64,000 nt of DNA from Okamejei kenojei (Eukaryota). A program made the position numbers and the translations under genes. Under the pieces are notes generated by a model. The model saw nothing but the letters and a program-made list of their open reading frames with translations, ran no database searches and was not told the origin of the DNA. The stretch lies in contig CM069155.1 of the NCBI GenBank assembly GCA_035221665.1, positions 29,636,001-29,700,000 on the forward strand, given 5' to 3'. This document shows, piece by piece, positions 25,206 through 62,503 of the stretch (position 1 is the stretch's first letter; every line of letters begins with the position of its first letter).

Positions 25206-25254
25206 ATGGCTTGCTCGATCTGTGTGGTTGGTGCGTTGGTGTTATGCGCAGTTT
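25206..25254 (+). CDS. IGL: Ig light chain cluster A, leader exon (MACSICVVGALVLCAV)
   Basis: 16 hydrophobic codons plus 1 nt, then GTGAGT donor at 25255. Same 49-nt length as the other two leaders. Confidence 0.93.
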
Positions 25255-25374
25255 GTGAGTATTATACGTGCCCGGACAATCGATTTATTTCCGTGCACCA
25301 TTAAATTGTGATCTTCTCTCACACTTCAACTATCTTATTGATTTTATATTTTTCTGATCTTGATCTTTTCTCAG

Positions 25375-25716
25375 ATGTAAACGCGGCAATTACTATAAGT
25401 CAACCGACTTCGATGTCCACCTCTACGGGACAGAACATGCAAATAACCTGCACCATATCGGGCTCCAGTTCAGGTGGTAACTATGTCTCCTGGTACCAAC
25501 AGATCCCTGGCAAAACTCCAAAGTATTTAATGTACTATTATTCCGGCAGCATTGACAAAGGCACGGACATTCCAGACCGTTTCTCCGTCTCAATGTCAGG
25601 CAACACTGCAACATTCGCAATATCTAACGTTCAAGCGGGTGATGCTGCAGACTATTACTGTGCAAAATGGGATAGTGGTTTACATTTCGGTAAAGGAACG
25701 AGGCTGGGTATTGGTG
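25375..25716 (+). CDS. IGL: Ig light chain cluster A, germline-joined VJ exon
   Basis: Acceptor ttttctcag. Reads ITC, WYQQ, DYYC-AKWDSGLH-FGKGTRL. GTAAGT donor at 25717. No RSS or spacer between V and J. Confidence 0.97.
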
Positions 25717-27218
25717 GTAAGTGAAATATATTATTTGAGTGGCGCCATGGATTATTTTGTAAATTTAAGTGAAGTGTTTGCTGAATTAACGTCGTAATTC
25801 ACGCAAAATGGAGGAACAGCAACTCATATTTCATTTGACCAGCTTACAATCCAGCTGTAAGACTACTGATTTCTCTAACTTCAAGTAACTTTGAAGTTAG
25901 TCGTTGTAATAGTTTCAATGTTTTCCTGGTGAGTTGCATTGTCTGTAACTCGTTTTCACCGAGGCCACAGTTAAACATGGGTTAATTCCTTTATCGTCGT
26001 TATTTTTTTGCATATCTTTCTATCATTTTTCCTTATCTCTTATATCACCGTCTATATATCTCGCGTTCCTTTCCCCTGAATCTCAATCTGAGTAAGGGTC
26101 TCGACCCGAAACGTCGCCTATTCCTTTTCTCCAAAGATCCGCTAAGTTACTCCAGCGTTTTGTGCCTATCTTGATTTTGCCAGGTTTATCTCGATGTACT
26201 TGGTGCAGTGTATAGATTCCTGCTTTACAGACGCTCAGGCTCCGAGTTCACTAGCTCATAGCTCCGTGAAATAACTGGAAAAGGGAGCTAAAAATCAATT
26301 TCTCAACTCGGCACCCAGTGAACCTTTCGCAGATGAGAGCCACATTTCTACCTCAGAGCCATTTCAAATTATTCAGGACCCGAACAAGACTAGGCCATTC
26401 GGGCCCTACGCCCTCAATATTAGAGAAGAAATCGCGCACCTGTGATTCCAAGCTTTATGTGTGTTTACAGTTCACATTTTACCAATTTATTTAGGCTGTA
26501 CTTCAAGAACTTGAATGTTCTCGAAAATGTGAGGCGACTCTCCAATTTTTCATTCCCGACCATTAATTATCGCGTGTTTCCCAATGCTAATTATTGGCAC
26601 TATTTTTCTGGATTTTAGCGTAGTCATGTATATTGGGATTGACGTAGAATTGAAGTGCCCCCTAAATAAAATGCGGGTTGTTAAATAATTTGCAGAAGTA
26701 TTCACAGCGAAATTTTTCAACTCGCGAAAATAATTGTCCAGATTGCTTGGTTAATGGGGGTCAGCAACGTTGACATTCAACTTTGCTGAAATTCTGGTTG
26801 ACATGTCTAACGGGTATATCGTTTCTCCTCAAAATGTGAAAAGAGAACGTTTCGCACATTTCCCTCAGGAAATAGGTTGCTTTTGTTTAAACTGGAGACG
26901 TGTAGTGAAAATCACTTTTATAAAGTTATATTAATGTGTTCTATTTTATAAAACTGTACAGCCATAATATATCACAATTGTTTCCGTGTTGTTTATGGAT
27001 AGGACAGACAGCATCTATCCTAGTTGCTTTCACGTTGTTTATTCATTGTTTATCCGATTTTAAGAAACACACACACATACACAATTGTTTGAAATGGGTC
27101 GAGAATAAAACGATTTTCTACAAATGAATAAATTAATGCTCTAATGTGATGAATTTTCTGAAATATGATATCTCGACGATAGCAATTCTCCAATTAAACG
27201 TGACTTCTTGTTAAACAG

Positions 27219-27542
27219 ATCCTCGAGCACCGATCGTGACGGTTCTCCCGCCTTCCGCTGATGAAGTTACCTCAAAGGGCACCGCCACTCTGGTTTGTTT
27301 GGTGAGCGGCTTTAACCCGGGTTCGGTGGTCGTTGAGTGGACAGTCGACGGCGGTACAAAAAATAGCGGCGTTGAGACCAGCCCGATCCAGCAGGATAAG
27401 GACAACACGTTCAGTCTTAGCAGTTACCTGACTCTGCCAGCCTCAGACTGGAATTTACACGAGCTTTACTCCTGTGTGGTTAAAACACCAGACTCAGGCA
27501 AACCCACTTAAGACAAATATCGTGAGATCCAGCTGTATCTGA
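27219..27542 (+). CDS. IGL: Ig light chain cluster A, constant exon (lambda-like type II); +1 frameshift at 27482-27485 as written
   Basis: ag|AT CCT gives DPRAPIVTVLPPS...ATLVCLVSGFNPG...YSCVVK. Removing one A from TAAAAC restores HQTQANPLKTNIVRSSCI-stop (TGA 27540-27542). AATAAA at 27807-27812. Confidence 0.9.
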
Positions 27543-28963
27543 TGTTGGAAACGTGAGGCTGACCTGACAAAGTTAGTTTATCATCATTGGGTTCGTCCAT
27601 GTGACAAAGTTAGTAATGTATTGGACTTTGGTGCTTTCGTTCAGAAATGCCATTTGTAGTTGACACTTCGATTTTTACGATTTGTTCACTTTAAATGTAG
27701 TTCTTTCGAAAGAATAACGTTTTTGAATGAACATCAAGTAGATTCAATTGCGTTAGCCAAAAGCATGGATGTTGCTATTGTACCCATTGTATATTTGCAG
27801 CCGTTGAATAAAGTTTTAAAACGCATTTCAAATGCATTGTTGATTTCCTTTGTTATACTTCTGACCCGAACCATGATGGCTTAACATGGGTTGTGTTCTC
27901 TCGTAGATTTGAGCTACCAACACTGATTTTTGTTTCTCTATTTCGATCGCTAATTACAATCACACAACAGTAGTGAACCACTCGTCGATTTATACCATGC
28001 GTTCTACAGCGCTTTGTCAGTTCGTGTGCAACATTAATCAGACAAAGATCCGTGTAAACCAAGCATGGCAAACGTGGTCTTAATGCGAAAAATATCACAG
28101 AAATAAACAGAAAATACTATTAATTCTCAGTAAGTCGGGCGGCACGTGGGAAGTGAGAAATAGATTAGACGTTTCAGTCTGTTGTTAGACATAATTTAAA
28201 AATTATGTCCTTACCAGCATTCAGGGATTGTCAAATATGTCTTCGTTCATACACCGTTATATAATTAAATAAAATGCGTGTGCATACCTGGAAATCTGGA
28301 AATTTGAAAACGCCATTAATTCCCAACATATTAGCAAGTTTCTGTAAACGGATGGGTTGTTTCGCACCTCCACTTTACACTCCTCGCACCGAGCATGGCA
28401 CCTCCATCCTTTATCACAGAAGACTGTCACTTTCACACTAATCGGTGACGCGGTTTGTATTTAAATATTTACAAACATTACACTTTATTTCTTCCGATTG
28501 TCAGCTTTAACGAAACAGGGTGATTATTGGCGTTAGCAGAACAGGTACTGAGTTTGTATGTGGCGTGCACGTGTCTCACGGTGGTATCACACTGGAAATG
28601 GGCAACAACACTCTCAATAAAGCAGGATAATGTCTTCAGAAAGATGCGATGAGTGCACGGCAGCTTCATATAGACACGTGAGAAAAAGAGAGAGAGAGAG
28701 AGAGAGGAGGGGGGGGGGTGAGAATAGAACGGGGGCGGGGTTAAGAGCGAACAATAAGGGAACTATTTGCTATAGTAAGAGGACAAGCAGACACGGACAA
28801 ACCCCTACCTCTGTCACAAATCGCTTTTCACTTATTCCAAGACTTATTCCCAATTATTTTCACGTTACATGAGCAACCTGGGCTTAGGTCTTAATGAATC
28901 GGAAGAATCGGAATGCAGATGCTGGTTTAAACCAAAGATAGACGATTTATTCGAATCAGCAAA

Positions 28964-29926: not shown

Positions 29927-32900
29927 GAAACATAGAAAATAGCTGCAGGAGGAGGCCATTCGGCCCTTCGAGTCAGCACCGCCATTCATTATGATCATGG
30001 CTGATCGTACCCTATCAATTACCCGTGCCTGCCTTCTCCCCATATCCCTTCATTCCACTAGCTCCTAGAGATCTATCTAACTCTCTCTTAAATCCATCCA
30101 GTGATTTGGCCTCCACTGCCCTCTGTGGCAGGGAATTCCATAAATTCACAACTCTCTGGGAGAAAACGTTTTTTTCTCACCATAGTCTTAAACGACCTCC
30201 CCTTATTCTAAGACTGTGGCCCCTGGTTCTTCACTCGCCCAACATTGGGAACAATTTTCCTGCATCTAGCTTGTCCTGTCCTTTTATAATTTTTGATGTT
30301 TCTCTAAGATCCACCCTCATCCTTCTAAACTCGAGTGATCACAAGCCTAGTCTTTTCAATCTTTCCTCATATGACAGTCCCGCCATCCCAGGGATCTATC
30401 TCGTGAACCTACGCTACACTGCCTCAATCACAAGGATGTCCTTCCTCAAATTAGGAGACCAAAACTGTACACAATACTCCAGATGTGGTCTCACCAGAAC
30501 CCTATACAACTGCAGAAGAAAATTCTTTACTTCTGTACTGAAATCCTCCTGTTATGAAGGCCAACATTCCATTAGCTTTCTTCACTGCCTGCTGTACCTG
30601 CACGCCAACTTTCAGTGATTGGTGTACAAGGACACCCAGGTCTCGCTGTACCTCCCCCTTACCTAACCTAACCCCATTAAGCTAATAATCTGCCCCTTGT
30701 TTTTGCCGCCAAAATGGATAACCGCACAGTTATCTTATTATACTGCATCTGCCACGCATCTGCCCACTCACTCAACCTGTCCAGGTCACCCAGCAAGCTC
30801 CCAACATCCTCTTCACAGTTCACACTGTCACCCAACTTTGTGTCATCCGCAAACTTGCCAGTGTTGCTCCTAATTCCCTCTTCCAAATCATTAATATATA
30901 TGGTAAGCAGTTGCGTCCCCAACACCGAGCCTTGCGGCACTCTACTCGCCACTGCCTGCCATTCTGCCGTTCACTCCTACTCTTTGCCAACCAATTTTCT
31001 ATCCATGTCAACACCCTACCCCCAATACCACCTGCTCTAATTTTAGTCACCAGTCTCCCGTGCGGGACCTTATCAAAGGCTTTCTGAAAGTCTAGATACA
31101 CAACATCCACTGGCACCCCTTCATCCATTTTACTTGTCACATCCTCAAAAAATTCCAGAACATTAGTCAAGCATGATTTCCCTTTCATAAATCCATGTTG
31201 ACTTGGACTAATCCTTTTATTGCTATCCAAATGCCCCATTATTACCTCTTTAATAATTGACTCCAGCATCTTTCCCACCACCGAAGTCAGGCTAACTGGT
31301 CTGTAGTTCCCCGTTTTCTCTCTCGCTCCTTTCTTGAAAAGTGGGATAACATTAGCTATCCTCGAATCCACAGGAACCGATCCTGAATCTATTGAACATT
31401 GGAAAACGATCACCAATGCGTCCACTATTTCTAGAGCCACCTCCCTGAGGACCCTGGGATGCAGACCATCAGGCCCAGGGGATTTATCACCCTTCAGTCC
31501 CATTAGCCTACCCAATACTATTTCTCGCCTAATGAAAATTTCTTTCAGTTCCTCTACCCCCTTAGATCCTCTCTCCTCCAGTACATCAGGGAGATTGTTT
31601 GTGTCTTCCTTAGTGAAGACAGATCCGAAGTACCTATTCAACTCTTCTTCCATTTCCTTGTTGCCCATAATAATTTCACCCGTGACTGTCTTCAAGGGAC
31701 CCACATTTTACTTTGCTACTCTTTTTCCCTTAAAATATCTAAAGAAGCTTTTACTGTACTTCTTTATATTCCTGGCCAGCTTCCCTTCATGCTCAATATT
31801 TTCAGCCCGTATTGCCCGTTTTGTTTCCTTCTGTTGTCCAACGTGTTGCCCATTTTGTTTCCTTCTGTTCCCAATCCTCTGGCTTCCGGCTACTCTTTGC
31901 TGTGTTATTCACCTTTTCTTTTCGTATTATTCTATCCCTCACTTCTCTTGTCAGCCACGGTTGCTTCATACTCTCCTTAGAATCTGTCTTCCTTTTTGGA
32001 ATGAAATGATCATGCGTCTTCCGGATTATGCCCAGAAATTCCTGCCATTGCTGTTCCACCGTCATTCCTGCTAGGATCCCTTTCCAGTCTACTTTGGCCA
32101 GCTCCCCTCTCATGCCTTCATAGTCACTTTTGTTCAACTGCATCACTGCCAATTCCGATGTATCGTTCTCCTTCTCAAATTGCAGGTTAAAACTAATCAT
32201 ATTATGATCACTGCCTTCAAGCGGTTCTTTTACCTCGAGTTCTCTTATCATATCAGGTTAATTGGACCACACTATATCCAGAATTGCCTTTTCTCTGGTT
32301 GGCTCCATTACAAGCTACTCTAAGAATCCATCTCGGAGGAATTCTACAAACTCTCTTTCTTGGGGTCCTGAACCAACCTGATTTTCCCAGTCTACCTGCA
32401 TATTGAAATCCCCCATCACCACAGCGGTATTACCTGTGTTACATGCCAGTTTTAACTTCTGCTGCAACGTACAACATACATCCGGGCTACTATTTGGGGC
32501 TCTGTAAATAAAACCAATTAGCGTCTTCTTGCCTTTACAATTCCTCAACTCAATCCACGGTGACTCTACCTCGTCAGTCCCCATGTCTTCCCTCGCAAGG
32601 GACTGAATTTCATCCCTCACCAGCAGAGCTACCCCGCCTCCTCTGCCAACCTGCCTGTCCTTTCTATAGGATGTATAACCCTGAATATTAAGTTCCCAGG
32701 CCTGATCCTCCTGCAGCCACGTCTCAGTAATCCCCTCAATGTCATATCTACCAACCTCTAACTGAGCCTCAAGCTCATCTACTTTACTTCTTATACTTTG
32801 CGCACTCATGTACAATAATTTTAATTCCTTACGCATCTCACCTTTCACATCGATCCCTATTACACTTGGCCATACTCTCCTATCCCTTTGTGAGCTTCCT

Positions 32901-33767
32901 TTCCCGTTGATTCAGGGGGTCATTAAACATCCCTTTACTCTCTTTCCCTTTAACTCCATCATCGACTGTCCCATTTGACACCCCACCCCCCCTTATTCAG
33001 TTTAAAACCACCAGTGTAGCAGTGGCTAAACCCTAAACCCTGCCTGCCAGAATGCTGGTTCCCCACCTGTTCAGATGCAATACGTCCCTTTTATGCAGTC
33101 CCCCCTTACACCCCAGTGATCTAAGAATCTAAATCCCTGCCCTCTGCACCAGTTGGTCAGCCACACATTCAGGACCCGTATCTCCCTGTTCCTGCTCTCG
33201 CCAGCACGAGGAACTGGAAGCAAACCGGAGATAACAACCTTGGAGGTCCTGCTTTTCAGCATTTTTCCGAGCTCTCTAAGGTCACGCTGCAGAATATTCA
33301 TCCCCTTCTTTCCGACATCATTTGTGCCAACATGCGCTACCACTTCCGGCTGTTCACCTTCGCCCTTGAGGATTTTCTGCATTCTGTCCGTGATATCCTG
33401 GATCCTGGCACCAGGAAAGCAGCGCACCATGCTCGAATCCCGTCTAATCCCGCACAATGGAGACTCCAACTACGATGGCGTTGCCTGACGTTGGCCTCTT
33501 TGGTTTTGGGTGAACAGCCCTTTTAGCGTCGCAAGCCAGTCCGCCACTCAGTGTGATAACGTCTTCTGTCCCGACAGCTTCTGAGTGGGTGAACCTGTTC
33601 ACAAGAGGTACAACACCCGGAGACATTTGCATTCCATGTTTCCCTCTCTTTCTCACCGTCACCCGCCTTCTCTCTTCCAGTACCTTAGGCGTAACAATCT
33701 TACTGTAGGACTTGTCGAGGAACGACTCAGTTTCTCGGACGAACCTGAGGTCATCCACTTGCTTCTC
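29927..33767 (-). mobile_element. Near-full-length CR1 LINE (ORF1 SGNH-esterase part, ORF2 APE and RT), 5'-truncated
   Basis: ORF1: CFPGARIQD, AHVGTNDV. ORF2: GITETWL, MGDFN, SDHN, KSPGPDG, QHGFMKGKSCLTN, FADDTKL. Imperfect TSD AAACATC 29920-29926 / AAATATC 33768-33774; flanks rejoin colinearly with 14225-14260. Confidence 0.93.
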
Positions 33768-33926
33768 AAATATCATGTCGCCTGCCAGCGGCGTAATTGT
33801 GCCTTGCCCTTCCATGATTTTGACATATATCGAAACGTTCAGTGGACTCAATAACTATATTGCAGGAAAACAAATCCATATTTCTCTTAGACCGGAAAAA
33901 GAACGAAACAGGCGTTAACCAACACT

Positions 33927-34110
33927 AGATACAACATGCTAGAGCAACTCAGCGGGATAGAGAGCATATCTGGACAGAAGGAATTTGTGACCTTTCCGGT
34001 CGAGATCCTTCTTCAGACCCGAATCGAGAGATGCTTCCTGTCCCGCTGCGTTACCCGAGCATTTTGTGACTATCTTAGATTTAAACCAGCATCTGCAGTT
34101 CCTTCCTACA
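33927..34110. mobile_element. Short hammerhead element, head-to-head form, with TSD
   Basis: TSD CGTTAAC(C/T)AACACT at 33913-33926 and 34111-34124. Degenerate minus core at about 33989-34016. Confidence 0.8.
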
Positions 34111-34927
34111 CGTTAACTAACACTGTCGGTGTATGTTTTTTTAGCTAAATCAATCCCTATCCATTGATTTATTTGGGGGATTAATGTATTGTTGGCCAGA
34201 CAATGCATCGATTTCCCATCCCTATCTATTGCTCTAATACCCATAGTGAAGATACATCGCAAAGTGAATCAAACGGAGATTAAATATCCAGGAGAGAGAG
34301 AGAAAATTACAAGAAAATAAAGACGGGGGTGGGGGAGGCCGCATTTTTTCCTGTGTCGTAATGTAATTACATTATTTTAGCGTTGCCTTCCGAAGATTTC
34401 TAGATGTGTGCGCCAGGACCGGCGAGAAAATCATGCACTTACACTCATGCCACACATAAATGCTGTCGGCCTCTCTTGCTCATCATCCGCGTGAATGCTG
34501 TAAAACACGATGTCAGGGCCATAACTTCATTCCTATCCACGATGGCCCACGATGTCTGTGCGAACCAATTGCCAATTTACACTAATGCAGTCTGCCTGAG
34601 ATAAATAATGTCTATATCCCTCCATTCACTATCTGTTCACGTGCTTGCCTAAACGCCTCTTGGACCTTGCTGGGTATCTACTTCCACCGCTTCTTCTACC
34701 AAAGCGTTCCACACTTTCTGTTTAAAAAAGACATGCAAAGTGTACCCCATTCAAACTCTCCTACCTTAAAGCTAGAAAATATATAATACAATACATCGGC
34801 CTGGAAAGGAAACTCTGAGTATCAACCGCTGATAGAGAGAGAGAGACGTGTGATAATGATATCGCAAAGCGTAATGTTTCTGGAGAAGTTTTCCAACTTA
34901 TATTGAACTGGTCCATTTTATAACCAG

Positions 34928-35213
34928 ATCCTAAGGTCGGTTCTGCCACCTTCGCCGAACGAAGTCACGGTAAATGGACCCGCTACCCTGGTGTGTTCGG
35001 TAAGCGGGCTTAATTCGCGGGATGTAAACATTGAGTGGACTGCAGACAAAACTGCGAGAAGGAATGGCGTTGAGACCAACCGGGTCCAGCAGGAGACGGG
35101 CAGCCCTCTGCCAGCCTCAGATTGGAAACTACACACGCTTTCCTCCTGAGTGGTTAAATACGAGACTAAAGACAAATCCCATTACGTAAAACATCGCGAT
35201 CCATTTTATTTGA
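34928..35213 (+). pseudogene. Orphan Ig light chain constant-exon pseudogene
   Basis: Acceptor aaccag|ATCCT as in cluster B. Reads SVLPPSPNEVTVNGPATLVCSVSGLN...EWT...GVETNRVQQETG. Has a frameshifting 5' deletion, loss of the FSxSSYL strand, and TGA in place of the second Cys (35147-35149). No V exon seen upstream. Confidence 0.9.
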
Positions 35214-35486
35214 TGGTGAAAAACTTGCGCGCTGAACTGGGAAACTTGGATCATGCATTTCTTCCAGGTGACAACAGATCGAAATGTTACACAAATTAGG
35301 GGGGAACCCTCGGGAGAACATGGATAGGTGACGTTTAGAGTCGGGACCTCTCTTCTGACTGATTGTGGTGGGGGTGGAGGAGAAAGCTGGAAAAGAGGTG
35401 GGGTATGACTAAGCCTCACAAGTAGGTGGATACAGTGGGGCGGCGGGTGATTGGCTGATGGATAAGATAAGAAAAGACAAAATAAG

Positions 35487-36637
35487 AAATTAGTATACAA
35501 ACTTAATGCATACGGTATTAGGGGTTCAGTATTGATGTGGATAGAGAACTGGCTGGCAAACAGGAAGCAAAGAGTAGGAGTAAACGGGTCCTTTTCACAA
35601 TGGCAGGCAGTGACTAGTGGGGTACCGCAGGGCTCAGTGCTGGGACCCCAACTATTTACAATATATATTAATGATCTGGATGAGGGAATTGAAGGCAATA
35701 TCTCCAAGTTTGCGGATGACACTAAGCTGGGGGGCAGTGTTCGCTGTGAGGAGGATGCTAGGAGACTGCAAGGTGACTTGGATAGGCTGGGTGAGTGGGC
35801 AAATGTTTGGCAGATGCAGTATAATGTGGATAAATGTGAGGTTATCCACTTTGGTGGCAAAAACAGGAAAGCAGACTATTATTTAAATGGTGGCCGATTA
35901 GGAAAAGGGGAGATGCAGCGAGACCTGGGTGTCATGGTACACCAGTCATTGAAAGTAGGCATGCAGGTGCAGCAGGCAGTGAAAAAAGCGAATGGTATGT
36001 TAGCTTTCATAGCAAAAGGATTTGAGTACAGGAGCAGGGAGGTTCTACTTCAGTTGTACAGGGTCTTGGTGAGACCACACCTGGAGTATTGCGTACAGTT
36101 TTGGTCTCCAAATCTGAGGAAGGACATTATTGCCATAGAGGGAGTGCAGAGAAGGTTCACCAGACTGATTCCTGGGATGTCAGGACTGTCTTATGAAGAA
36201 AGACTGGATAGACTCGGTTTATACTCTCTGGAATTTAGGAGATTGAGAGGGGATCTTATAGAAACTTACAAAATTCTTAAGGGGTTGGACAGGCTAGATG
36301 CAGGAAGATTGTTCCCGATGTTGGGGAAGTCCAGGACAAGGGGTCACATCTTAAGGATAAGGGAGAAATCCTTTAAGACCGAGATGAGAAAGACTTTTTT
36401 CACACAGAGAGTGGTGAGTCTCTGGAACTCTCTGCCCCAGAGGGTAGTTGAGGCCAGTTCATTGGCTATATTTAAGAGTGAGTTGGATGTGGCCCTTGTG
36501 GCTAAGGGGATCAGAGGGTATGGAGAGAAGGCAGGTACGGGATACTGAGTTGGATGATCAGCCATGATCATATTGAATGGCGGTGCAGGCTCGAAGGGCT
36601 GAATGGCCTACTCCTGCACCTAATTTCTATGTTTCTA
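35487..36637 (+). mobile_element. Young 5'-truncated CR1 with an uninterrupted ORF2 C-terminus (35532-36548)
   Basis: 338-aa open ORF with [25 protein letters not shown] and YSLEFRRLRGDLIETYK. Tail tttctatgtttcta. Sits inside a minus-strand Penelope pLTR remnant. Confidence 0.95.
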
Positions 36638-37769
36638 AAAGTTGTGATCTAAGGATAGCAGTTCGAATCGTGAAGACAGAAGAAGGAATATAGGGGGAAG
36701 GGGAGGGAGAGTGGGGATAAATAGTGTGTCAATACGGGTGGGGCACAAGCAGGGGAGGGGAAGGAAGAAAAGAAATCAAAAACAACAAATAAATCAATCA
36801 ATAAATAAATAAATAAATACGCAACTAAGGACATAAACGAATACACGAGTAGATAAATAAATAGAAAAATAAAAAAATATATAAAATAGATGGGCAAATA
36901 GGCGAATATGTAAATAAATAAACGGAACGGTGGATAGATACATAAATAAATAACCAAAAACTTCGCAGTTTTAATTTTCATCAAATATTATGTATTGGAA
37001 ACTCTGTTATTGTAAACGCTGTCTATCCAAATAATGTACTGGTTCAAGTTTAATTGACTTTAGTGCTGCGTGTTCAACAACATTGAATAAAGGCAAATAA
37101 GTGATTCGTGCTTCCTCGTTTTTTTTTGGTCTTTTTTCCATGAGTCAATGTACTCAATGAATTGATCTCGGATGCAATGTTTTTTCCGTTTCATTTTATT
37201 ATGATGCAAAGTTCTTGAACAGGAATTTAACTGGTGTTGATTCCCCACGCTGTTTAAATATTGGCACTAATTTCCTCCCATTTTTTTTTACCATGAATCG
37301 GGATGTGCAACAGTCTGGATTTCCGATTGGTTGTCCGTGTCCACAGTGCGGCTTTCGTGGTCGAGCGAATGCAGCGACGGTAATTGGCGATGTCATTGCG
37401 CAAGGGCGATTTGATAGCAGCCCTTCCAACACGCTTTGCGTCATCCAGGGAAAGCATCGAGCGTCCGCACTGGACAATTGGGCAGGATGAACAAAATCCA
37501 AATCTCGATTGTCCATCCCTGAACACCTGCATAAAATAATGAGTTTGACACTAAAAGCTGGAGCAACTCAGCGGGTCAAACAACGTATCTAGAGAAAGGG
37601 ATAGAGCCATAGAGTCATACAGTCATACAGTCAAACAGTATGGAAACTGGCCCGACGGCCCAATTTCCCCACACCGGGCCTAACCAGCCCCACCTGCCCG
37701 CAGTAACCCCTCAGATTCCTATTAAATATTTTTCCCTTAACCGTAAACCTATTTTACTCCTCCTGTTTC

Positions 37770-38768
37770 CTCCAAACACAAGGCGTAGCTATGGGCACAT
37801 GCATGGGCCCCAGCTACGCTTGCCTCTTTGTCGGGCACGTCGAACACTCCTTGTTCTCGGCGTACCAGGGCCACATCCCCGACCTCTACCTCCTTTACAT
37901 CGACGATTGCTTTGGTGTCATCTCCTGCACCCACACACAACTGACTGACTTCATCCATTTCACCACCAACTTCCATCCGGCACTCAAATACACTTGGACC
38001 ATTTCCGACATTTCCCTACCATTCCTTGACCTCACCATCTCTATTGCAGGTGATACACTCCTGACCGACATCCACTACAAACCAACTGACTCCCACAGCT
38101 ACCTGGACTACTCTTCCTCCCACCCTGCTTCCTGTAAGGACTCCATCCCCTATTCCCAATTCCTCCGTCTACGCCGCATCTACTTCCAGGATGAGGTGTT
38201 CCACACCAGGTCATCACAAATGGCCTCATTCTTCAGAGAACGGGGATTCCCCTCACCCACTATAGATGAGGCTCGCACCAGGGTCTCCTCCATATCCCGC
38301 AACACTGCCCTCGCTGCCCATTCCCCCACTGGCAACAAGGGCAGAGTCCCCCTGGTCCTCACCTTTCACCCCACCAGCCAGCAAATGCAACACATAGTCC
38401 TCCGCCAGTTTCGCCACCTCCAACGTGACCCCTCCACTCGCCACATCTTCCCATCTCCCCCCCCTGTCTGCCTTCCGCAAAGACCGCTCCCTCCGCAACT
38501 CCCTTGTCAATTCTTCCCTTCCCTCCCGCTCTACCCCTTCCCTTGCAACCGCAAGAAATGCTACACTTGTCCCTTCACCTCCCCCCTCCACTCCTTTCAG
38601 GGACCCAAGCAGTCCTTCCAGGTCCAACAGAGGTTCACCTGCACCTCCTCCAACCTCATCTACTGCATCCGCTGCTCCAGATGCCAGATGATCTATATCG
38701 GTGAGACCAAGCGGAGGCTTGGCGATCGTTTCGCCGAACACCTCCGCTCGGTCCGCAAAAACCAACCC
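37770..38768 (+). mobile_element. Penelope-like element, RT C-terminal half and GIY-YIG endonuclease
   Basis: GVAMGTCMGPSYACLF, YIDD, FLDL, YKPTDSHSYLDYSSSHP, CTSSNLIYCIRC and YIGETKRRLGDRFAEH in the open 332-aa ORF 37791-38789. Confidence 0.95.
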
Positions 38769-39044
38769 AAGCATGGTGCCCAGAACTGAACACAATACTC
38801 TAAATGCGGCTTCACCAACATCTATATAACTGCAACATGACCTCACAGGGTCTACACTAAATACTCTGATTGATGGCCAATTTGCCAAAAGCCTTTTTGA
38901 CCAGCTGTCTACCACTCCACGTTCAAGGAACCATGCACCTGAACTCCAGAATCCTTCTGCCTTCTGTACCAGAGAAGCTTAGGAGCAACTTTTATTTGGT
39001 AAATTCACATCTCATGTGTTGGATTTTAAAAGGCCATCTGGTCA

Positions 39045-39745
39045 TAATTCAGGACTAACTTGTTCCTCAGAACACCAAGGATCGGACTGTTCTGCGACCT
39101 CTGATGAAGGGAGATGTTGCAAAAAAAATAAAAGGACGCAAGTGAATGGTTCAGGAAGCTGAAATCCATCTGTGCCATTGAAGAAGATACACCAAACGGA
39201 GCGTACGTAAACAGGGAATTAGAAGGGCCAAGAAGGCCGTAGCAGGACCTTAGTATGTAGGATTGAGGAGAAACGTGAGACATGTTATACATATATTACA
39301 AAGAAAATAGCAAAACAACTCAAGACAAAGGAGCCGGATGAAATTGGCGAAATACTAAACGAGAAGAAGGACAAGCAGGATAGCGAAATCAAGGAGAGGT
39401 ATGTTAATAGTCCAGGGCATGTTGACATCAAGAAGGATGATTTTGTTGTCTCTTGAAAAATGTCAGCTTAGATAAGTCACCATAGCCTAATAGAATCTAT
39501 CCCACGTTATTGAGAGACGCAAGAGAGTAGAATACTGGGTTTTTGGCGGTGACCTTTGTTTGCTCTTCAGCCATAGGCCAGGTGCCAAAGAACCGGAGAA
39601 TATTCAATTGTGTTTCCCTGTTTCTGAAGGACATCGGAGAGAAACCAGAAAAGTATATACCAGTGAGCCTTTCATTAGTGGTTGCGAAAATATGAAGAAA
39701 GCTTCTTCCGTATCAGATCTACTCGCCATCTGGAAAACATTGACT
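39045..39745 (+). mobile_element. Old degenerate CR1 ORF2 fragment
   Basis: Remnants resembling EILNE, KSP-P-GIYP-LL and YTPVSL-LVV-K. No long ORF. Confidence 0.5.
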
Positions 39746-40114
39746 TATTGGCGATGGCACAAGAGACTGCAGAGGCTTCATGGAGGGGCTGATTGGTGGA
39801 TAACATTCAAGTTTGGGGGAGGGGGTGGAAGGGTGAAGATGTCAACAACGGCTGTGAGATGATATGGAAATACATCTGTAGGTTCTGTCATCTGAAAGGA
39901 AGTGTAGGCGAGGAATGGAACAAAATGAGGAAGGTTGGTAGCTGGGAACTGAAGAGGGAAGGGAAGGGGAGCAATGGGGGAAGGAGATGGAGAGTGTCGG
40001 GGAGGAGGAAGAAACTGGTGGAGAACTGGGGGTTGAGGTGGGAATAAGAGGTGTCAGAAAGGGCCGGGATAGATAGGATGAGATGGAAAGGGGTAGCGGT
40101 GTTTAGGGTAATCA

Positions 40115-42593: not shown

Positions 42594-42621
42594 CTGAAGA
42601 AGGGGCTCGACCCGAAACGTC
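42594..42621 (+). ncRNA. Minimal hammerhead ribozyme motif (Penelope pLTR type)
   Basis: CTGAAGA-A-GGGGCTCGACCC-GAAACGTC: conserved CUGANGA, GAAA and UH boxes are intact. Confidence 0.7.
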
Positions 42622-44654: not shown

Positions 44655-44730
44655 GACATTTCTGATTGGCGCTAAGCAGCAATATCATTTGCATTAATAA
44701 GGTGACACCTCACCGCACTATTCAAAAGCG
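44655..44730 (+). promoter_or_regulatory. IgL cluster B promoter: inverted CCAAT and perfect octamer/decamer
   Basis: CTGATTGG at 44662-44669; TCATTTGCAT at 44685-44694 fits the light-chain decamer TNATTTGCAT; about 105 bp upstream of ATG 44798. Confidence 0.88.
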
Positions 44731-44797: not shown

Positions 44798-44846
44798 ATG
44801 ACTTACTGGATCCGACTACTCTGTGCGCTTGCTCTTTGCGCGACTT
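44798..44846 (+). CDS. IGL: Ig light chain cluster B, leader exon (MTYWIRLLCALALCAT)
   Basis: 49 nt, phase 1, GTGAGT donor at 44847. Confidence 0.93.
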
Positions 44847-44960: not shown

Positions 44961-45308
44961 ATTTACGCGCAGAAGTTACAGTGAGCCAGCCGCTTTCGAT
45001 GTCCATCACTCCGGGGCAGAATTTAGAAATAACATGCACCATGTCCGGCGCTACTTTAGGGAATGACAATGTTTACTGGTATCAGCAGATTCCTGGACGT
45101 ACTCCGCGGCTTTTAGTCTATTATTGGTCCAGCAAGGACACTCCTGGTCGAGGTCCGGGAGTTTCAGAGAGGTTTTCCGGATCAGTGTCAGGCAACACGG
45201 GGACTTTCACACTATCTAACGTTCAATCAGACGACGCTGCCGATTATTACTGCGCTATGTGGAAAAACGTTTTAAGATTTGCAAAAGGAACACGAGTGGC
45301 TGTTGGCA
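44961..45308 (+). CDS. IGL: Ig light chain cluster B, germline-joined VJ exon
   Basis: Acceptor tttccccag. Reads ITC, WYQQ, DYYC-AMWKNVLR-FAKGTRV. GTAAGT donor at 45309. No RSS. Confidence 0.97.
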
Positions 45309-47228: not shown

Positions 47229-47426
47229 TGAGATTTTATTAAGGTAATGTTTGATTTATCCCGAAATCCTCATTGTAAATTATATTTCAGTAGCTAGATA
47301 CACGATGTGAATGTATTATTTTGAAGCGGGTGGACGTAAAGGCTATTACATTGGTTATTACATTGACCTTTGATCCGAAAGTAGTGCTTCAATTATTATT
47401 TAGCTGCGATCTTTTTTTAAAACCAG

Positions 47427-47749
47427 ATCCTCGTCCCCCTGCCGCATCCGTTTTACCACCTTCAGCAGATGAGATGAGAGTAAAGGGCACCGCCACCCTG
47501 GTGTGTTTGGTGAGCGGGTTTAATCCGGGTGCTGTGGAAATTCAGTGGACTGTGGACGGCAGTGCGAGAAGTGATGGCATTGAGACCAGCCGGATCCAGC
47601 AGGAGACGGACAACACGTTCAGTGCGAGCAGTTACCTGACTCTACCAGTCTCAGACTGGAAATTACACGAGCTGTACTCCTGTGTGGTTAAACACGAGAC
47701 TCAGGCAAACCCAATTCGGGTGGATATCGCGAAATCCAGCTGTATGTGA
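47427..47749 (+). CDS. IGL: Ig light chain cluster B, constant exon (lambda-like type II), intact
   Basis: aaccag|AT. Reads PRPPAASVLPPS...ATLVCLVSGFNPGAVEIQW...YSCVVKHETQANPIRVDIAKSSCM-stop, with both domain Cys and the penultimate interchain Cys. AATAAA at 48025-48030. Confidence 0.97.
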
Positions 47750-50022
47750 AATGGAAATGTGCTAATCGAGAGAGTTTGTTTATCATGATTATTTTCTTTT
47801 ATTTGATGCAATGTGGAAATGTATTGGTCTCTGGAGTATTACATTTACCAGCTACATTTCGCACGTAAAGCTTATTTTTTATGACTTGCTCACTTTAAAG
47901 CTATTCTGTCGACAAAATACCAGTACTATTTACAGCCTCAAGTTTAATTAATATGAGTTTAGTACATCCAAATACTTGGCAAATGCCAATATGTGACCTT
48001 AGTGTTGTTTGCAGCCTTTGCGAAAATAAATAAACGAATCTTAAATGCAATGCAATAGCCTTTTTTTTCTAATGCAAAATATGTTGACCGGGAATTAGAA
48101 TACTTTTGATGTTTCCACCCTTTTTTCTTTGGAACCGATCTCCTCCCAATGTACAGTGGATGATTAATTTGAATCCTGTAATTATAATCAGCCTCGGTTA
48201 GTTGTAATGCGATACCGCGTACGACTGTGGGTACCAGGAAATGTGGGAAAGGTATTTGACGATGGCAGTCATTAAACAACATCAGTTTGATAGCAGCCCT
48301 GCCAACATGTTCTACGTCAACACAGATGAAGCACTGAATCCACAGAACACTTAGTCTTAGTAGGAAAAAGAACCACAATCTTATTTTTCCTGCATCGCAT
48401 TCTCCTATTCGTCCAGAGACTCAAATTCGCACCAAATACCTCCAAAGATTAGTTTTTGAAATAAGTATTTTCTGCCCATTGACGTTTTAACACAATCCAT
48501 TTGTACATTTACAATTAGCCAATGAGACTCAATTCAATTTAAAAAAGATGAAGATTAACTAGTCAATAAAATTCAATCGATCCAGATAACACTTTTTTTT
48601 AATATAGCAGAAGAGATAGAATCCACGGAAGATACACAGAGCAGGAGCAGTATAATTTTTCAGTGAGTGGAGGACAGGTCATGTAAATGTTGTGCACATC
48701 ACACTCAGTTATTTACAGCGCTGTGGCTATAAGCTCGATTGATCAAATAATTAGGGAACGGCCACCACTATGTCCGTCTAATACGCTATTGTTGCTACAC
48801 GCACGTTTAAATTAACTTTACATTAATTTGCATGCTGGTTAACATCTTTAGGATTGCCTATATTTTCATTATGCGGAGGTCCCGTGTTGGGCTTAGGAGG
48901 AAGGAATACGAAGATGATCATCGCCTATGAGAACCAGGGACATAGTACATTTGTAAAAATACATTTTGAAGGAATCATACAGTCATAGTTATGCAGCATG
49001 AAAACATAGTTCAACCCGTTCATGCCATTCAATACATCCATCGAAGCTCCTCCAATTTGCCCGGTTTCAATCTAGACCTTTCCTGTCTGGATATAATGAA
49101 TGCAAAGAAAGCACTGCCGATTAATCTGGTAGGAGAACTATGCACTTGTAATAAAACACAGGATACCAGAAGGACGTCTCCGTTCTCTGAATGGATGTTA
49201 TAAAGTGAAACATGGCAGTAACGGAAAGAATTAGCAGAATAGCACGCTGACAGAAAATAATGATTAGAAATTGGCACAACATATCTTCCGCTTAATGTGA
49301 AAAGACAATGTTTCAACTAAAATAACGTGTTTTTTAATTTTCAAGCTCGTCTGCTTCTTCGGCAAAACTGGGCGGCAACTTCCCAATAGTCGTCAAGAAA
49401 GGAGTCTCACAGAGTCTCTGACCAGAAGGGTCCATTCGCATACCGTCGGGAGGTAGAGAATGCTTCGCCACAACACCACTTGTCCCAATACACAGAGCAT
49501 TAACATGCATTTACGATTCATCTGTACGAATACAACGCACAATGATCTTTAATTTATTTTGCCTGTAGGTAATTCAGTGGGGCACATATTAAACAAACCT
49601 TTCGATTTGCAGGCTGGTTCGCTCTCCACGTGTAGCTGGTTTGATCTACTCGGGATAAAAGCCAGAGGAGCAAACTGCGTGATTATAGATGGGAGGGGCG
49701 AGGTTTCACCAGTGCAGTGCGTCATTGTGTGGATTATCTATCAATATATCTTCTATGATAGAGAAGAGTCGAATAGCTCAAATGTAGTATTAAATGCTCT
49801 AAATAGTAGCGTAAAGCCACATAATCAGCGAACTCGCGAAAGTTAAAGCTGACTGGACAACTGGTTGACATTTGCTAATTCACCGTATCAGATAGCATCA
49901 TTGAGACATACGGAGAACCGACGGTTAGGGTCGGGATCTTACTTCAAACTGATTGTCGTGCGCGGGGGGGGGGGGGGTGGTCTGACAGAAACGTGGGATT
50001 GGTGCTGCAAAGCTAGGTAAGT

Positions 50023-51348
50023 CATAGAAACATAGAAACATAGAAAATAGGTGCAGGGGTAGGCCATTCGGCCCTTCGAGCCGACTCAGTATCCTGTACC
50101 TGCCTTCTCTCCATACCCCCTGCCTGATCCCTTTAGCCGCAAGGGCGACATCTAACTCCCTCTTAAATATATCCAATGAACTGGCCTCAACTACTTTCTG
50201 TGGCAGATAATTCCACACACTTCACCACTTTGTGTGAAAAAAAAATCTCATCTCGGTCCCAAAAGACTCCCCCCTTATCCTTAAGCTGTGACTCCTTGTT
50301 CTGGACTTCCCCAACATCGGGAACAATCTTCCTGCATCTAGCCTGTCCAACCCCTTAAGAATTTTGTAAGTTTCTAGATCATCCCCCTACAATCTTCTAA
50401 ATTCTAGCGAGTACAAGCCGCGTCTATCCAGTCTTTCTCATTATGAAAGTCCTGCCATCACAGGAATCAGTTTGGTGAACCTTTTCTGTACTCCCTCTAT
50501 GGCAAGAATGTCTTTCTTCAGGTTAGGAGACCAAAACTGTACGCAATACTCCAGGTGTGGTCTCACTAAGGCCCTGTATAACTGCAGTGGAACCTCCCTG
50601 CTCCTATACTCAAATCATTTACTATGAATGCTAACATACCATTCGCTTTCTTCACCGCCTGCTGCACCTGCATGCTTACTTTCAATGACTGGTGTACCAT
50701 GACACCCAGGTCTCGTTGCATCTCCCCTTTTCCTAATCGGCCACAATTCAGATAGTAGTCAACTTTCCTGTTCTTGCCACCAAAGTGGATAACCTCACAT
50801 TTATCCACATTCTACTGCATCTGCCATGCATTTGCCCATTCACGCAGCCTATCCAAGCCCTTGCAGCCTCCTAGCATCCTCCTCACACCTAACACTACCC
50901 CCCAGCTTCGTGTCATCCGCAAGCTTGGAGATGTTGCATTCAATTCCCTCGTCCAAATCATTAATATATATTGTAAATATCTGGGGTCCCACAACTGAGC
51001 CTTGCGCTGCCCCACCAGTCACTGCCTGCCATTCTGAAAAGGACCCGTTTACTCCTACTCTTTGCTTCCTGTCTGCCAGCCAGTTCTCTATCCACATCAA
51101 TACTGAACTTCCAATACCGTGTGCTTTAAGTTTGCACATTAATCTCTAATGTGGGACCTTGTCGAAAGCCTTCAAAAATTCCAGATATAACACATCCACA
51201 TGTTCTCCCTTATCCACTCTACTAGTTACATCCTCGCAAAATGCTATAAGATTCGTTAGACATGATTTACTTTTCAAAAATCCATGCTGACTTTGTCCAA
51301 TGATTTCACTACTTTCCAAATGTGCTGCTATCCCATCTTTAATTACTG
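50023..51348 (-). mobile_element. CR1 3' portion
   Basis: QHGFLKSKSCLTNL, KAFDKVPH, LADDTKLGG; (catagaaa)n tail at the left end. Same subfamily as 35487-36637. Confidence 0.92.
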
Positions 51349-52027
51349 ATAGATGCATACATGTGAATGAGTTTGAATTGCAGCTAGTTGGACATGTGCT
51401 AGGGATGAATACAGACAGACGGCTGTGAGATAATAAGGAAGGCGTGAAATGTTGAGCCAGAGGAAGGAACAGCGGTGGATGGGGGCAAGGAGAGGAAGGG
51501 GAGGCGGGATAGAGGGTGAAATTAGCGTGAATTCAGGTGGAGCATAGCAACCGGGTGGGTGGTAGAGGGAGGGGGGTTTGGTGACGGGGGCGGGGGATGG
51601 GGTATGTGTATGGAGGAACTGCCGATGCTGGTTTAAACCGAAAACAATCACAACAAGAAGTAACTCAGGGGTCGGGCAGCATCTCTGGAGAAGAAAAATA
51701 GAGGACGCTTCCGTTCGAGACCCTTCTTCAGACTGACATTCAGGGAAAAGGGTAACTTATATTTGGATAATTCAATGTTCATACAGTTGAGTTGGTAAGC
51801 ACCAACGAGAAATGTAAGATGTTCTTCCTCTATTATGCGTATGGCCTCACTCTTGCAATGGAGGAGTCTCAGGACTGATAGAAAGGCATAGGAATGAGAA
51901 TATGACCCATCTGGGTGTACACCCATTTCTCCCACTATTCCATGTGCCCCGAAGATGCTGCCTCACCAGCTGAGTTACTGCATCACTTACTTTTTATGCA
52001 AACCAGCATGTGCTGTTCATTGTCATC

Positions 52028-52348
52028 AGTTGCCAACGGGAAGAAGGTATAGGAGCTTGAAATCTGGAAAATCCAGGTTCAAGTACAACTTATTCCCCAC
52101 AACCATCAGGCTATTAAACTCGCCATCAAACAAACTCTGAACAATAACAGCCTATTGCACTTTATCTGTTTATGTATTGTATATATATAAATATATATAT
52201 ATATATGGTCTATGGTATATAAGGCACACTGAACTTTTATCTCCTGTTCCATATTATGTTTACATATTTTATTGTGCTGCAGCAAGCAAGAATTTCATTG
52301 TACTATCTGGGACACATGACAATAAAACTCGCTTGACTCTTGACTCTT
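52028..52348 (+). mobile_element. Rex1/Babar-type LINE 3' end
   Basis: LPTGRRYRSLKSGKSRFKYNLFPTTIRLLN (consensus LPSGRRYRS..RF..SFFP.AIRLLN), then AATAAA and a (cttgact)n tail. Confidence 0.75.
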
Positions 52349-52499
52349 GTGTATGTAATTAGATAATACCTGTCACAATTGCTTGCTGCCAGCAAATAGT
52401 GAACCAACACTTTAAGAAGGTGAGGACATCAGAACGGGGTAGCGAGAGGTCAAAGCTGTCTAAATAGCTCTGCAGGCTGTTCAGCACGTCCAGGATATA

Positions 52500-52702
52500 G
52501 CATATGATACGATATGATATAACTTTATTAATCCCAGGAGCGAAAATGATCTGCCAACAGTCATAAAAACACAAAATACATGAAACATGAAATTAAAGTG
52601 ACGAGTAGAAAGGATTGGGGGATATGCAAAGATCGGGGGGGAGGGGGGGAGTTGAAAAGTTTGATAGCCACAGGGAAGAAGAATCTGCTGTGGCGTTCTG
52701 TG
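52500..52702 (-). mobile_element. Second Rex1/Babar-like LINE 3' end
   Basis: Minus strand reads FFPVAIKL, then aataaagt and an (atcgt/atcat)n tail. The same tail occurs at about 17200-17245. Confidence 0.6.
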
Positions 52703-54261
52703 GCGTATACGTTCGGAACTATTCACTTTCGCAACTGTTATATCCTTACTCCTTATCGCACACATTTTGTAGTTTCCACACAGACCTTTGTCCAACCATT
52801 TGCCAATCAACCCACCCCGCCTTATCTATATCCACCAATCCTTGCCAGATTCTGTCCCGCCAACAGCCCTCTTCCAACGTAAAGTGGAGATTGACAGGTT
52901 CTTAGAGAATGGAGGTGAGAGGTAAAATAGATCAGCGATTATAGAATAGCGAAGCAGGTTCGATGGACCGAATGGACTAATTCTGCTGCCACGTCTTATG
53001 AATTAATCACCCCCCATCCCCACTACAATCCGAAATTTGAAGAAGGGTCCAGACCCAAAACGTCGCATATCCATGTTCTCTAGATGTGATGGTTCACCCA
53101 CTGATCTACTTCAGCACTTGTGTCTTTTATTTGTAAGGATTTATGCCGGTCGTAAGGATTTGGGAATAACCCCGATTCTGCTTTTGTTTGCACCCATGAT
53201 TCTGATAAACGCTTATCTCTGACAATAGCACGAATTGTGTACCAAGCAATTACTAGATTCTGTATGAATTTTAAAATGCAATAAACATGCATATCTGATT
53301 GACGTAAAGTCTTCAAGATTAGTTTTCAAATCCAATAACCTGCAAACTATCTAAAGCTTCTATGTTAATTAGTCAATTTCCGACGCCCAAATTTGTTTTA
53401 TGTGATTCTTAAAAACAGTAATAACCTTAAGTAAAATTGTATAACATTCATTTGGTTTGGTTCTACTTTCCCTGGCGTATTATGCACCCTCCGGAAACAA
53501 TCATCTGCAGCAAACAAACCACCACGCGTTTTGTGGAGTAGCACTCGGATATTGGAGCCGAGATTCTCAATTATCTTGAGCCGATGCTTCGATCGCTAGA
53601 AATCATGTTCCCTGAATTATTTCCCTCGAAGTTCCTTTTTGTGGAGTAACAAAAATGCATAGGTGAAACTTTGTCATGTTTGTGTCCAGTTCCCATAGTG
53701 ATCAAGGACACCTTTTGGTATTTTTATGTATACAATCTATTTGCCAGATCTGTGTCGTCTTAATTGACCATTGGCTGTCACATCTGGTCTCCTTAAGTAT
53801 CATCAGCACTGATTTCCGGTCAAATTCGAGCCTTCATTAAAGTCATTTAAAGGTATGTAAAAGAGTTCAGGGCACACACCCATACCCGCGACGGAACAGT
53901 TTGCATTACAAACCAGAACCAGACCTGATTATGCCTAGTCTCGGTTACCGGACAGCTGGCTTTCGATTCACCATAGATATGACCTCTGCACCGCGCGCTT
54001 TGATTTTTCTGCAACACGTTGTTGCTCCGGCACGTTATCCTAGAAAATCTGAGTGCATGCACCACTATTCTTATTTTGACAATGCACATCAATTCTTCAA
54101 ACAATTCTAATACATTAGTCAAGCGTAACCTTACGCCAACGTAAAGGACAGCTTTAAGGACTGCATCGGTGCTTTTCATCCTGCACTCAAATTTATTTGG
54201 ACCATCTCCGGCACCTCCCTCCCCTTTCTTGATGTCACAATCTCCATCACAGGAAATAGAC

Positions 54262-54358
54262 CAGTCTGAAGAAGGGTCTCGACCCGAAACGTCGCCTATC
54301 TCATTCGCTCCTTAGATGCTGCTGCACCCGCTGAGTTTCTCCAGCTTTTTGTGTAACC
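54262..54358 (+). mobile_element. 97-bp solo hammerhead mini-element nested in a Penelope ORF
   Basis: Perfect 14-bp TSD CACAGGAAATAGAC at 54248-54261 and 54359-54372. Confidence 0.9.
54266..54293 (+). ncRNA. Minimal type I hammerhead ribozyme motif, consensus copy
   Basis: CUGAAGA-A-[GGGU CUCG ACCC]-GAAA-CG-UC, with a palindromic ACGU helix III and a GUC cleavage triplet. Confidence 0.78.
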
Positions 54359-55649
54359 CACAGGAAATAGACTATTGACTGACGTCTATTACAAACTCAC
54401 TGACTCACACAACTATCTCGACTACATTTCTTCCCAACCTGCTTCCTGCAAAGGCTCTATGCCCTACTCCCTATTCCCCTATCTACGCCGCATCTGCGCC
54501 CAAGATGAGGTATTCTATACCAGGGCATCCGAGATGTCCTCATTCTTTTGAGAACGGTGGTTCCCCTCTTCCATCAAAGATGAGGCTCTGACTGGTGACT
54601 CCTCGGTACCCCGCAGCTCCACCCTTGCTCCCCCTCCCCCTAGCCACAACAGAGACAGAGTCCCGCTAGTCCTTACCTTCCACCCCATCAGCTGTCGCAT
54701 ACAACACATAATGCTCCGATATTTCCACCAGCTCCAACGGGATCCCTCCACTAACCACATTATCCTATCTCCACCGCTTCCACCTTCCGCAGAGACCGTT
54801 CCCTCCGCAACTCCCTGGTTAACTTATCCTTTCCCAGCCAAACCATCCTCTCCCCAGATACCTTACCCTGTAATCGCAGAAGATGCAACACCTGTCCCCT
54901 ATACCTCCTCCCTCGTCTCTGTCGAGGGCCCCCCACAGTCCTTTCAGGTCAGGCAAAGTTTCACTTGCACCTCCTCCAACCTCATCTACTGTATCCGTTG
55001 TTCAAGATGTGGACTCTTATACATCGGTGAGACCAAATGTAGACTGGGTCATCTTTTCACAGAACACTTTCACTCAGCCCGCCTGAACCGACCTGATCTC
55101 CCGATTACCGGACACTTTAATTCTCTTTCCCATTCCTACACAGAACTCTCTGTCCTAGGCCTCCTCCATTGTCAGATTGAGGCTAAACACAAATTGGATG
55201 AACAGCATCTCATAATCCGCTTGGGCAGCTTACAGCCCAGTGGTATGAATATTGATTTATCTCACTTCAGGTAGCCCCGGCATTCCCTATCTCGCTATCC
55301 CTCCCTACCCAAGTCGCACTAGCTTCTCGTATTCACCCGACAAACAGCTAACAATGGAATACATGTTTCCTTTATCATCTTTACTTTTTTGCATATATTT
55401 TATTCATTGTTCTTTATCTCTCCACATCATCTTCTATATCTCTCGTTTCCCCTATCCCTAACCAGAAGAAGGGTCTCGTCCCGAAATTGCAAGTCAGTTA
55501 ATCCAACGTCAGAGGTAGGGGATTTAAAAAGGCTTTCCTTTCCAATTGATGATCAGCATGACTTGTTGGTGGCAGATTTTTGTCTGACGATGTGAAATTT
55601 AAAAACTGATAATTAACATATTCATGAAGGCAGTGGCGTTAACGCCGTT

Positions 55650-60048: not shown

Positions 60049-60101
<53 letters not shown>

Positions 60102-61829: not shown

Positions 61830-61930
61830 GAATCTGGCAACTTCTGATTGGCGCAACGCGCATTCTGATTTGTCTGTTGACTGGATACATAAGGAACACG
61901 CGGTGACGCCTTGTCACACGGTTCATAAGC
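61830..61930 (+). promoter_or_regulatory. IgL cluster C promoter: CCAAT retained, octamer degenerate
   Basis: GAATCTGGCAACTTCTGATTGGC and AACACGCGGTG are shared with promoter A; the octamer position reads GGATACAT. Confidence 0.7.
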
Positions 61931-61984
61931 GACCGGGAGACAAGCAGTTTACCAGGGGTCCTCCGCTCAATCAATTACTGTACA

Positions 61985-62033
61985 ATGTCTTGTCGGATCT
62001 TGGCACTCTATGCGTTAGCTTTCTCCGCAGTTT
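61985..62033 (+). CDS. IGL: Ig light chain cluster C, leader exon (MSCRILALYALAFSAV)
   Basis: 49 nt, phase 1, GTGAGT donor at 62034. Confidence 0.93.
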
Positions 62034-62158
62034 GTGAGTATTTTACTTCCACCGACATAATATTTAATCTCGAATACGATTAAAAGTTTCTATTGCTGAT
62101 ACTTCTGTTGTTTATCTAATAATAGTTAATGCTCTATATTTTCTGGTTTGTTTTCCAG

Positions 62159-62503
62159 GCATAAATGCGCTAGTTACACTAAATCAGCCACCTTCAATGT
62201 CCACGTCTCCGGGGCAAAACGTGGAAATATCCTGTATCGTGACTGGTGGCAATTTAGGTAGTAATTATGCTTCCTGGTACCAGCAGATTCCCGGAGCGGT
62301 TCCGCGGTTTCTGTTCTACTATTACTCGGGCAGCAGCATTACTAGAGGCTCGGGAGTTTCTGACCGTTTCTCCGGATCAGTGTCAGGCAACACTGCAACA
62401 TTGACAATAGCGAATGTGCAGTCTGCGGACGCTGCGGACTACTACTGTGCTGCGTGGATAAGTGCTTTATTCTTCGGCAAAGGAACGAGGCTGGGTATTG
62501 GCA
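62159..62503 (+). CDS. IGL: Ig light chain cluster C, germline-joined VJ exon (C exon presumably beyond the window)
   Basis: Acceptor ttttccag. Reads ISC, WYQQ, DYYC-AAWISALF-FGKGTRL. GTAAGT donor at 62504. The J-C introns of A and B are 1502 and 2118 bp; only about 1497 bp remain in the window. Confidence 0.97.

Follow-up and report, generated by a model that had tools for sequence, protein, structure and literature searches.

The 64,000-nucleotide window analysed here (G000:C25:29636001-29700000) is very probably part of a skate lambda light-chain locus, in which tandem, pre-fused leader-VJ-C genes descend from a few ancient joins made in germ cells, have been duplicated into two blocks and have had their C exons homogenised. 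The window holds three of about 37 ready-joined lambda genes on one chromosome, 1.49 Mb of which was analysed around it. Genes of this type have long been known in sharks and skates; a full map of the locus is a useful addition. A limited literature search yielded no description of the two-block layout, of HIRA linkage in elasmobranchs or of the octamer difference described below, which is weak evidence of novelty.

The three leader-VJ units of the window lie on the plus strand and start at positions 25206, 44798 and 61985. Their ATG-to-ATG distances (19,592 and 17,187 bp) match the same-strand trio spaced at 19.6 and 17.2 kb that was described in a sequence-only reading of this DNA. Each unit consists of a 49-nt leader exon, an intron of 114-125 nt and a single VJ exon, in which V is fused in frame to J and the CDR3 has eight residues (3/3 units); introns are kept, and all are GT-AG. 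Unit 1 comprises a putative promoter (25048..25140), with a CTGATTGG box, an octamer with one mismatch and a TATA-like box, followed by a leader exon (25206..25254), a fused VJ exon of V lineage A (25375..25716) and a C exon that carries a +1 frameshift as assembled (27219..27542). In unit 2, a CTGATTGG box and a perfect octamer at 44687 (together 44662..44730) precede the leader exon (44798..44846), the fused VJ exon (44961..45308) and an intact C-lambda exon (47427..47749) with an AATAAA at 48025; when spliced in silico, this unit gives an open chain of 239 amino acids. Unit 3 has a CTGATTGG box without a canonical octamer (61844..61930), a leader exon (61985..62033) and a fused VJ exon (62159..62503), and its intact C exon lies about 1 kb past the window end (C25:29701012). 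An orphan pseudo-C exon, also on the plus strand (34928..35210), has no V or J upstream and carries an in-frame stop and a 24-nt deletion common to three copies within the locus; it is a real relic. Retroelements are plentiful around the units. With three complete gene anatomies in the window, a chance origin is excluded.

The locus as a whole spans 1.35 Mb and contains 37 VJ exons and 42 C exons, including 24 complete intact units. It is arranged in two blocks: block A (C25 29.31-29.87 Mb), with 24 VJ exons, 21 of them on the plus strand, and block B (C25 30.40-30.66 Mb), with 13 VJ exons, all on the minus strand. The 530-kb gap between them is free of V, J or C pieces. Every one of the 37 VJ exons is joined, as expected from the germline-joined array first proposed: 29 read in frame, and the eight broken ones align across the whole of an intact VJ exon. 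Moreover, no recombination signal sequence (RSS) was found in the 64,000-nt window when up to one heptamer mismatch and up to two nonamer mismatches were allowed, and exon anatomy and scan together bear out the earlier claim of in-frame V-J fusion without an RSS. As a control, the scan recovered a 23-bp RSS immediately after each of the two TCR-gamma-like V segments of L100. Six V exons of block B are preceded by RSS-like matches, which were rejected as copies of one chance match, lying on the opposite strand and overlapping the leader region, with leader codons forming the nonamer part; five weak matches in block A were likewise rejected, being located away from V ends. No split lambda gene was found in the 1.49 Mb around the window. 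The lambda genes of cartilaginous fish treated in PMC4279169 and PMC5192425 are all germline-joined, in agreement with the generalisation made in the sequence-only reading.

Two origins of the fused exons other than inherited germline joins were weighed. Processed retrocopies of a rearranged mRNA would also have V fused to J, and retroelements are abundant nearby, yet each of the 24 intact units retains its leader and J-C introns with their splice sites, and conserved promoter boxes upstream. The introns refute retrocopying, as was argued from the outset for the window units, and leave it a negligible probability. The joins might instead be somatic rearrangements captured from lymphocyte-rich DNA, as the tissue of neither the assembly nor the DNA runs is on record. 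Against such capture stand the joined state of every VJ exon in the locus, the identical joint in neighbouring paralogues and the presence of the same joints in proteins predicted from the genomes of other species. Furthermore, the unit 1 joint is found in DNA contigs of two samples, which align without gaps to positions 25409-25694, with 0-1 differences, and reach about 15-25 nt into J, less than the 31-letter bridging threshold. Somatic capture is hence close to refuted, and we regard it as very unlikely.

The two blocks carry different V lineages. V regions of block A, including those of the window, belong to lineage A, which has a long CDR2, four residues longer than that of human V-lambda. 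Those of block B are of the sandbar-shark type (clade support 99/94), and the window V regions fall outside this clade and lack the marks of lineage B, namely a WYWQKP framework and a short CDR2; the V lineage of the window is not the textbook shark type. V regions of the two lineages are about 50% identical, and their J sequences differ. The VJ of unit 2 clusters with single proteins from three other batoids (tree support 99), and a CDR3 of eight residues occurs in 19 of 19 readable lineage-A exons of the locus. Among homologues matched by two word-based searches, which are not a census, A-type sequences from batoids, sharks and a chimaera (n = 48) had a CDR3 of eight residues in 29 cases, nine in 18 and six in one, and B-type sequences had one of 5, 9 or 11 residues in 69 of 73 and none of 7 or 10. 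Such discrete, shared lengths suggest a few old joins that were later copied and shuffled. In V trees built on 95 columns, where the chimaera sequence was unplaced (it is assigned to lineage A by motifs only), V regions of both lineages group with mammalian V-lambda and are separated from sigma and sigma-2 (support 94/89), and the AU test does not reject a single clade of chondrichthyan lambda (p-AU 0.49). We do not claim a split of A and B before the bony vertebrates: mammalian V sat beside B in a preliminary tree (support 90), but a more careful tree and the AU test do not decide the order.

The distance between the V lineages raises the alternative that lineage A is a separate isotype, or a specialised chain with a borrowed lambda C exon, which would fit their low V identity, their separate blocks and their differences in CDR2 length, J and promoter. 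Nonetheless, A and B draw on a single C pool, share a locus at the lambda position and group with mammalian V-lambda in the above trees, and the length of the lambda CDR2 is known to vary (PMC5985310), which makes a separate isotype very improbable. A lambda-2 identity was rejected on the same feature, as lambda-2 has a short CDR2 of 2-3 residues (PMC5985310) and that of the window is long.

Assignment of the locus to lambda (type II) is supported by both the C domain and the neighbouring genes. The closest proteins to the window units come from skates and rays, with V 84% identical to Amblyraja, in keeping with the cartilaginous-fish origin first suggested. Units 2 and 3 have C domains that share 70-74% identity with three chains named as sandbar-shark lambda and only 40-45% with C domains of the same genome that, from their motifs, we take to be sigma-like and sigma-2-like, which led us to reject a sigma or sigma-2 identity. 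This agrees with the call of type II rather than type I in the sequence-only reading, whose quoted C motif is that of unit 2. In the C tree, the window sequences likewise group with the sandbar-shark chains, apart from sigma and sigma-2 of the same genome, so that the comparison it proposed, made here against lambda, sigma and sigma-2 in V and C trees containing no kappa sequence, places C with lambda. Published trees mix C-kappa and C-lambda (PMC5985310), and with no kappa row in ours, chromosomal position matters for the isotype. HIRA lies about 37 kb beyond the last block A unit, and an MRPL40-family gene about 124 kb beyond it, both within the gap between the blocks. A scan of the 150 longest of 455 candidate frames in this gap also revealed genes that we take to be a claudin and a GP1BB-like gene. 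The same 43-Mb chromosome, which makes up 1.6% of the genome, also carries TOP3, BCR, SMARCB1 and YDJC; BCR and YDJC are known as neighbours of lambda loci. In tetrapods, lambda loci are flanked by HIRA and MRPL40 (PMC4762898), and TOP3B and SMARCB1 are markers of the lambda region (PMC9614664). The genes that adjoin the locus are lambda markers, not RPIA, the marker of kappa.

The C exons appear to have been homogenised across V lineages. C domains of shark A-type and shark B-type chains are 82.5% alike, compared with 68.4% for shark A-type and batoid A-type chains, and V regions show the reverse pattern. C domains therefore sort by species and not by V lineage, a pattern that suggests that linked units have converted or exchanged their C exons. 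Estimates of dN/dS in three subfamilies (6, 8 and 6 units), from pairs that are not independent and with unit 29835227 and two divergent B units left out, were 0.13-0.36 for C, 0.36-0.80 for frameworks and 0.95-1.67 for CDRs. These values fit frameworks and C domains held under purifying selection and CDRs freer to vary, as would be expected of working antibody genes.

Taken as inherited germline joins, the fused exons would go back to a few V-J joins that became fixed in germ cells before sharks and rays split. Tandem duplication may then have expanded the joined genes into two blocks that flank the HIRA-to-GP1BB-like stretch, and their C exons may have been homogenised by conversion or exon swapping. 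With no split lambda relative in this assembly, we infer that RAG made the joins by analogy with nurse-shark kappa (PMC2193156, PMC2193153). The joined kappa gene NS4 of nurse shark is a model for such germ-cell joining by RAG, although in that case split genes persist beside the joined ones and some of the joins are of recent date (PMC2193156), whereas the skate locus has no split form and its joints look ancient. Alternatively, the VJ exons may never have been split, descending directly from a single-exon VJ gene that predates RAG; neither an RSS remnant nor a split lambda gene was found in the 1.49 Mb, and joint length is frozen across distant species. However, the syntenic tetrapod lambda locus is split and carries RSSs (PMC4762898), lineages A and B differ in their J and CDR3 classes, which fits separate joins, and the joined form of nurse-shark kappa derives from the split form (PMC2193156, PMC2193153). 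Descent from a gene that was never split is accordingly very improbable, and we retain ancient germ-cell joining as the favoured origin.

The frameshift of unit 1 lies in an A run (27482-27485) of the C exon and, as assembled, removes the last Cys-bearing residues. Among the matches listed (28 of 30; four DNA runs, two samples), the extra base is absent from all contigs that cross the site, and contigs that agree with the frameshift end there, although these contigs are short and partly derive from paralogues. Hence, the frameshift is probably an assembly error, which is likelier than a private allele. Live and dead units had been read as interleaved in the window; for unit 1 this reading lacks read support, and the dead piece that does stand is the orphan pseudo-C exon, which was overlooked at that stage. 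Across the locus, in 12 of 22 broken or orphan exons, gap openings against the nearest intact exon number at least three-quarters of the mismatches (e.g., 10 gaps and 1 mismatch), compared with 0-2 gaps in pairs of intact exons above 95% identity, and most of the apparently dead units are likely consensus errors. Furthermore, positions 36637-50080 of the window recur in inverted orientation at 93-99% identity, mostly with indel differences, up to an assembly gap. Some units may therefore be false duplicates, and the unit counts given here may include them. Frameshifts in such tandem arrays are often assembly errors, which is a warning for annotation.

Each unit is self-contained and, with V and J already fused, would probably need only transcription and splicing, and no RAG, to yield a light chain. 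Promoters differ between the lineages: a perfect octamer is present in 8 of 8 intact B units and in only 1 of 16 intact A units (unit 2), with one mismatch in a further 2 of 16, and the CTGATTGG box is found upstream of 16 of 16 intact A units. As most A promoters, that of unit 3 included, are without a canonical octamer, some lineage-A units may be weak or silent. Light-chain diversity would then arise from the choice among about 24-35 working units, from germline differences in the CDRs, from hypermutation, which nurse-shark lambda undergoes, and from pairing with heavy chains. Isotypes in which all genes are joined are expressed in other species, with cDNAs isolated from sandbar shark, skate and nurse shark (PMC2193156), and lambda is dominant in adult clearnose skate (PMC5192425).

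The locus resembles the joined type II/lambda clusters of sandbar shark, nurse shark (NS3), horn shark, skate and ratfish in its leader-VJ-C organisation with all genes joined, and the V regions of block B group with those of sandbar shark. The window V regions, by contrast, are 43-54% identical to the sandbar-shark V, and differ from it in their longer CDR2, 8-residue CDR3 and, for the most part, missing octamer; the roughly 37 units here also compare with six in nurse shark (PMC5192425). Type I (sigma-2) of Raja erinacea is similar in that all of its clusters are joined, differences are concentrated in the CDRs and there is no junctional diversity (PMC2192082), although it is another isotype, with C 40-44% identical. 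The likeness to the tetrapod Ig-lambda locus lies in the neighbouring HIRA and MRPL40, in TOP3, BCR, SMARCB1 and YDJC on the chromosome and in the best solved V matches, which are lambda-type. The tetrapod locus is, however, a split translocon that RAG rearranges, unlike the fixed skate genes, each with its own C.

Other light chains in the assembly were also considered. No kappa C was found with three C-domain queries (150 of 189, 150 of 178 and 140 of 140 candidates) or via the C1-set family (150 of 269 candidates), and 16 single C-domain matches presumably represent IgM, TCR, MHC or other domains, judging from their motifs. Around the RPIA match, which is weak (one exon, E 3.7e-5), no Ig piece occurs within 30 kb. 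For little skate, kappa is given as "ND" in Table 2 of PMC5985310. Both open sigma-like VJ exons are joined (erosion of a third sigma cluster prevents a call), as are 3 of 3 sigma-2-like VJ exons, and the assembly yielded no split light-chain gene. It is possible, though doubtful, that all light chains of this skate are RAG-free, with kappa lost and lambda, sigma and sigma-2 pre-joined. The main repertoire would then consist of two ancient lambda lineages flanking the HIRA-GP1BB block, the one driven by octamers and the other mostly lacking them, and promoter choice alone would decide which single light chain a B cell uses. The three sigma-2-like clusters of this assembly compare with at least 89 in Raja erinacea (PMC2192082), and clusters may thus be missing from it.

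The positional evidence indicates that tetrapod lambda and chondrichthyan type II are orthologous, a point that C trees alone do not resolve. If the assembly is complete, this skate would be an animal without any rearranging light chain. With at least 24 ready-made and mutually distinguishable genes side by side, the array would allow single-cell RNA-seq to address directly how a B cell selects its light chain without the limit set by rearrangement.

The promoters of the two V lineages on chromosome C25 were compared. The octamer is absent from most lineage-A promoters (block A, C25:29.31-29.87 Mb), where the CTGATTGG box is retained (e.g., window 61844-61930); lineage-B promoters carry a perfect octamer in all eight intact cases (8/8; block B, C25:30.40-30.66 Mb).

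The segment from unit 1 to unit 2 (window 24999-50080) recurs in inverted orientation at C25:29330295-29356000. Identity falls and indels increase in this copy toward an assembly gap, which suggests that the duplication is false in part. Additional C exons with no upstream V lie at C25:29633015, 29714662, 29369062, 29360045, and 29344344, and the first of these, 3 kb ahead of the window, is fully open. Retroelement remains lie between units (window 1-12000, 19000-22600, 30000-39000, and 50000-55300). Reverse-transcriptase frames between the units are presumably L1-like, CR1-like, and Penelope-like, a transposase piece (3510-4091) is presumably Tc1-like, and numerous copies of one repeat are, we assume, SINE-like.

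Other features flank the blocks. A Hairy-orange domain gene lies ~70 kb left of block A (L148:6860-7180, minus strand, C25:29.243 Mb), and the inter-block gap holds an integrase-core fragment of an LTR-type element (L112:4840-5163, minus strand, C25:30.035 Mb). Immediately past block B are two near-identical, mutually inverted single-exon V-set genes with J-like ends (L082:7304-7645, minus strand, C25:30.677 Mb; L083:2093-2434, plus strand, C25:30.682 Mb). Their Atlas neighbors are PD-1- and CTLA-4-like clusters, and they could be relatives of NKp30 or the CD28 family.

Light-chain types labeled by motif occur on two other chromosomes. At C28:17.99-18.04 Mb (stretches L084, L085, and L086), two sigma-like genes, each joined and each with a CDR3 of 11 residues, point in opposite directions, and a third cluster there is eroded; the CDR2 region of the L084 gene looks like two compensating frameshifts. 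Sigma-2-like clusters lie at C26:39.98 Mb and 41.74 Mb, and 1.5 Mb separates a sigma-2-like cluster from a partial BCR-type oligomerisation match (G000:C26:38478404). This match parallels BCR on the lambda chromosome, C25, and the C26 sigma-2-like and C25 lambda regions may be old paralogous loci.
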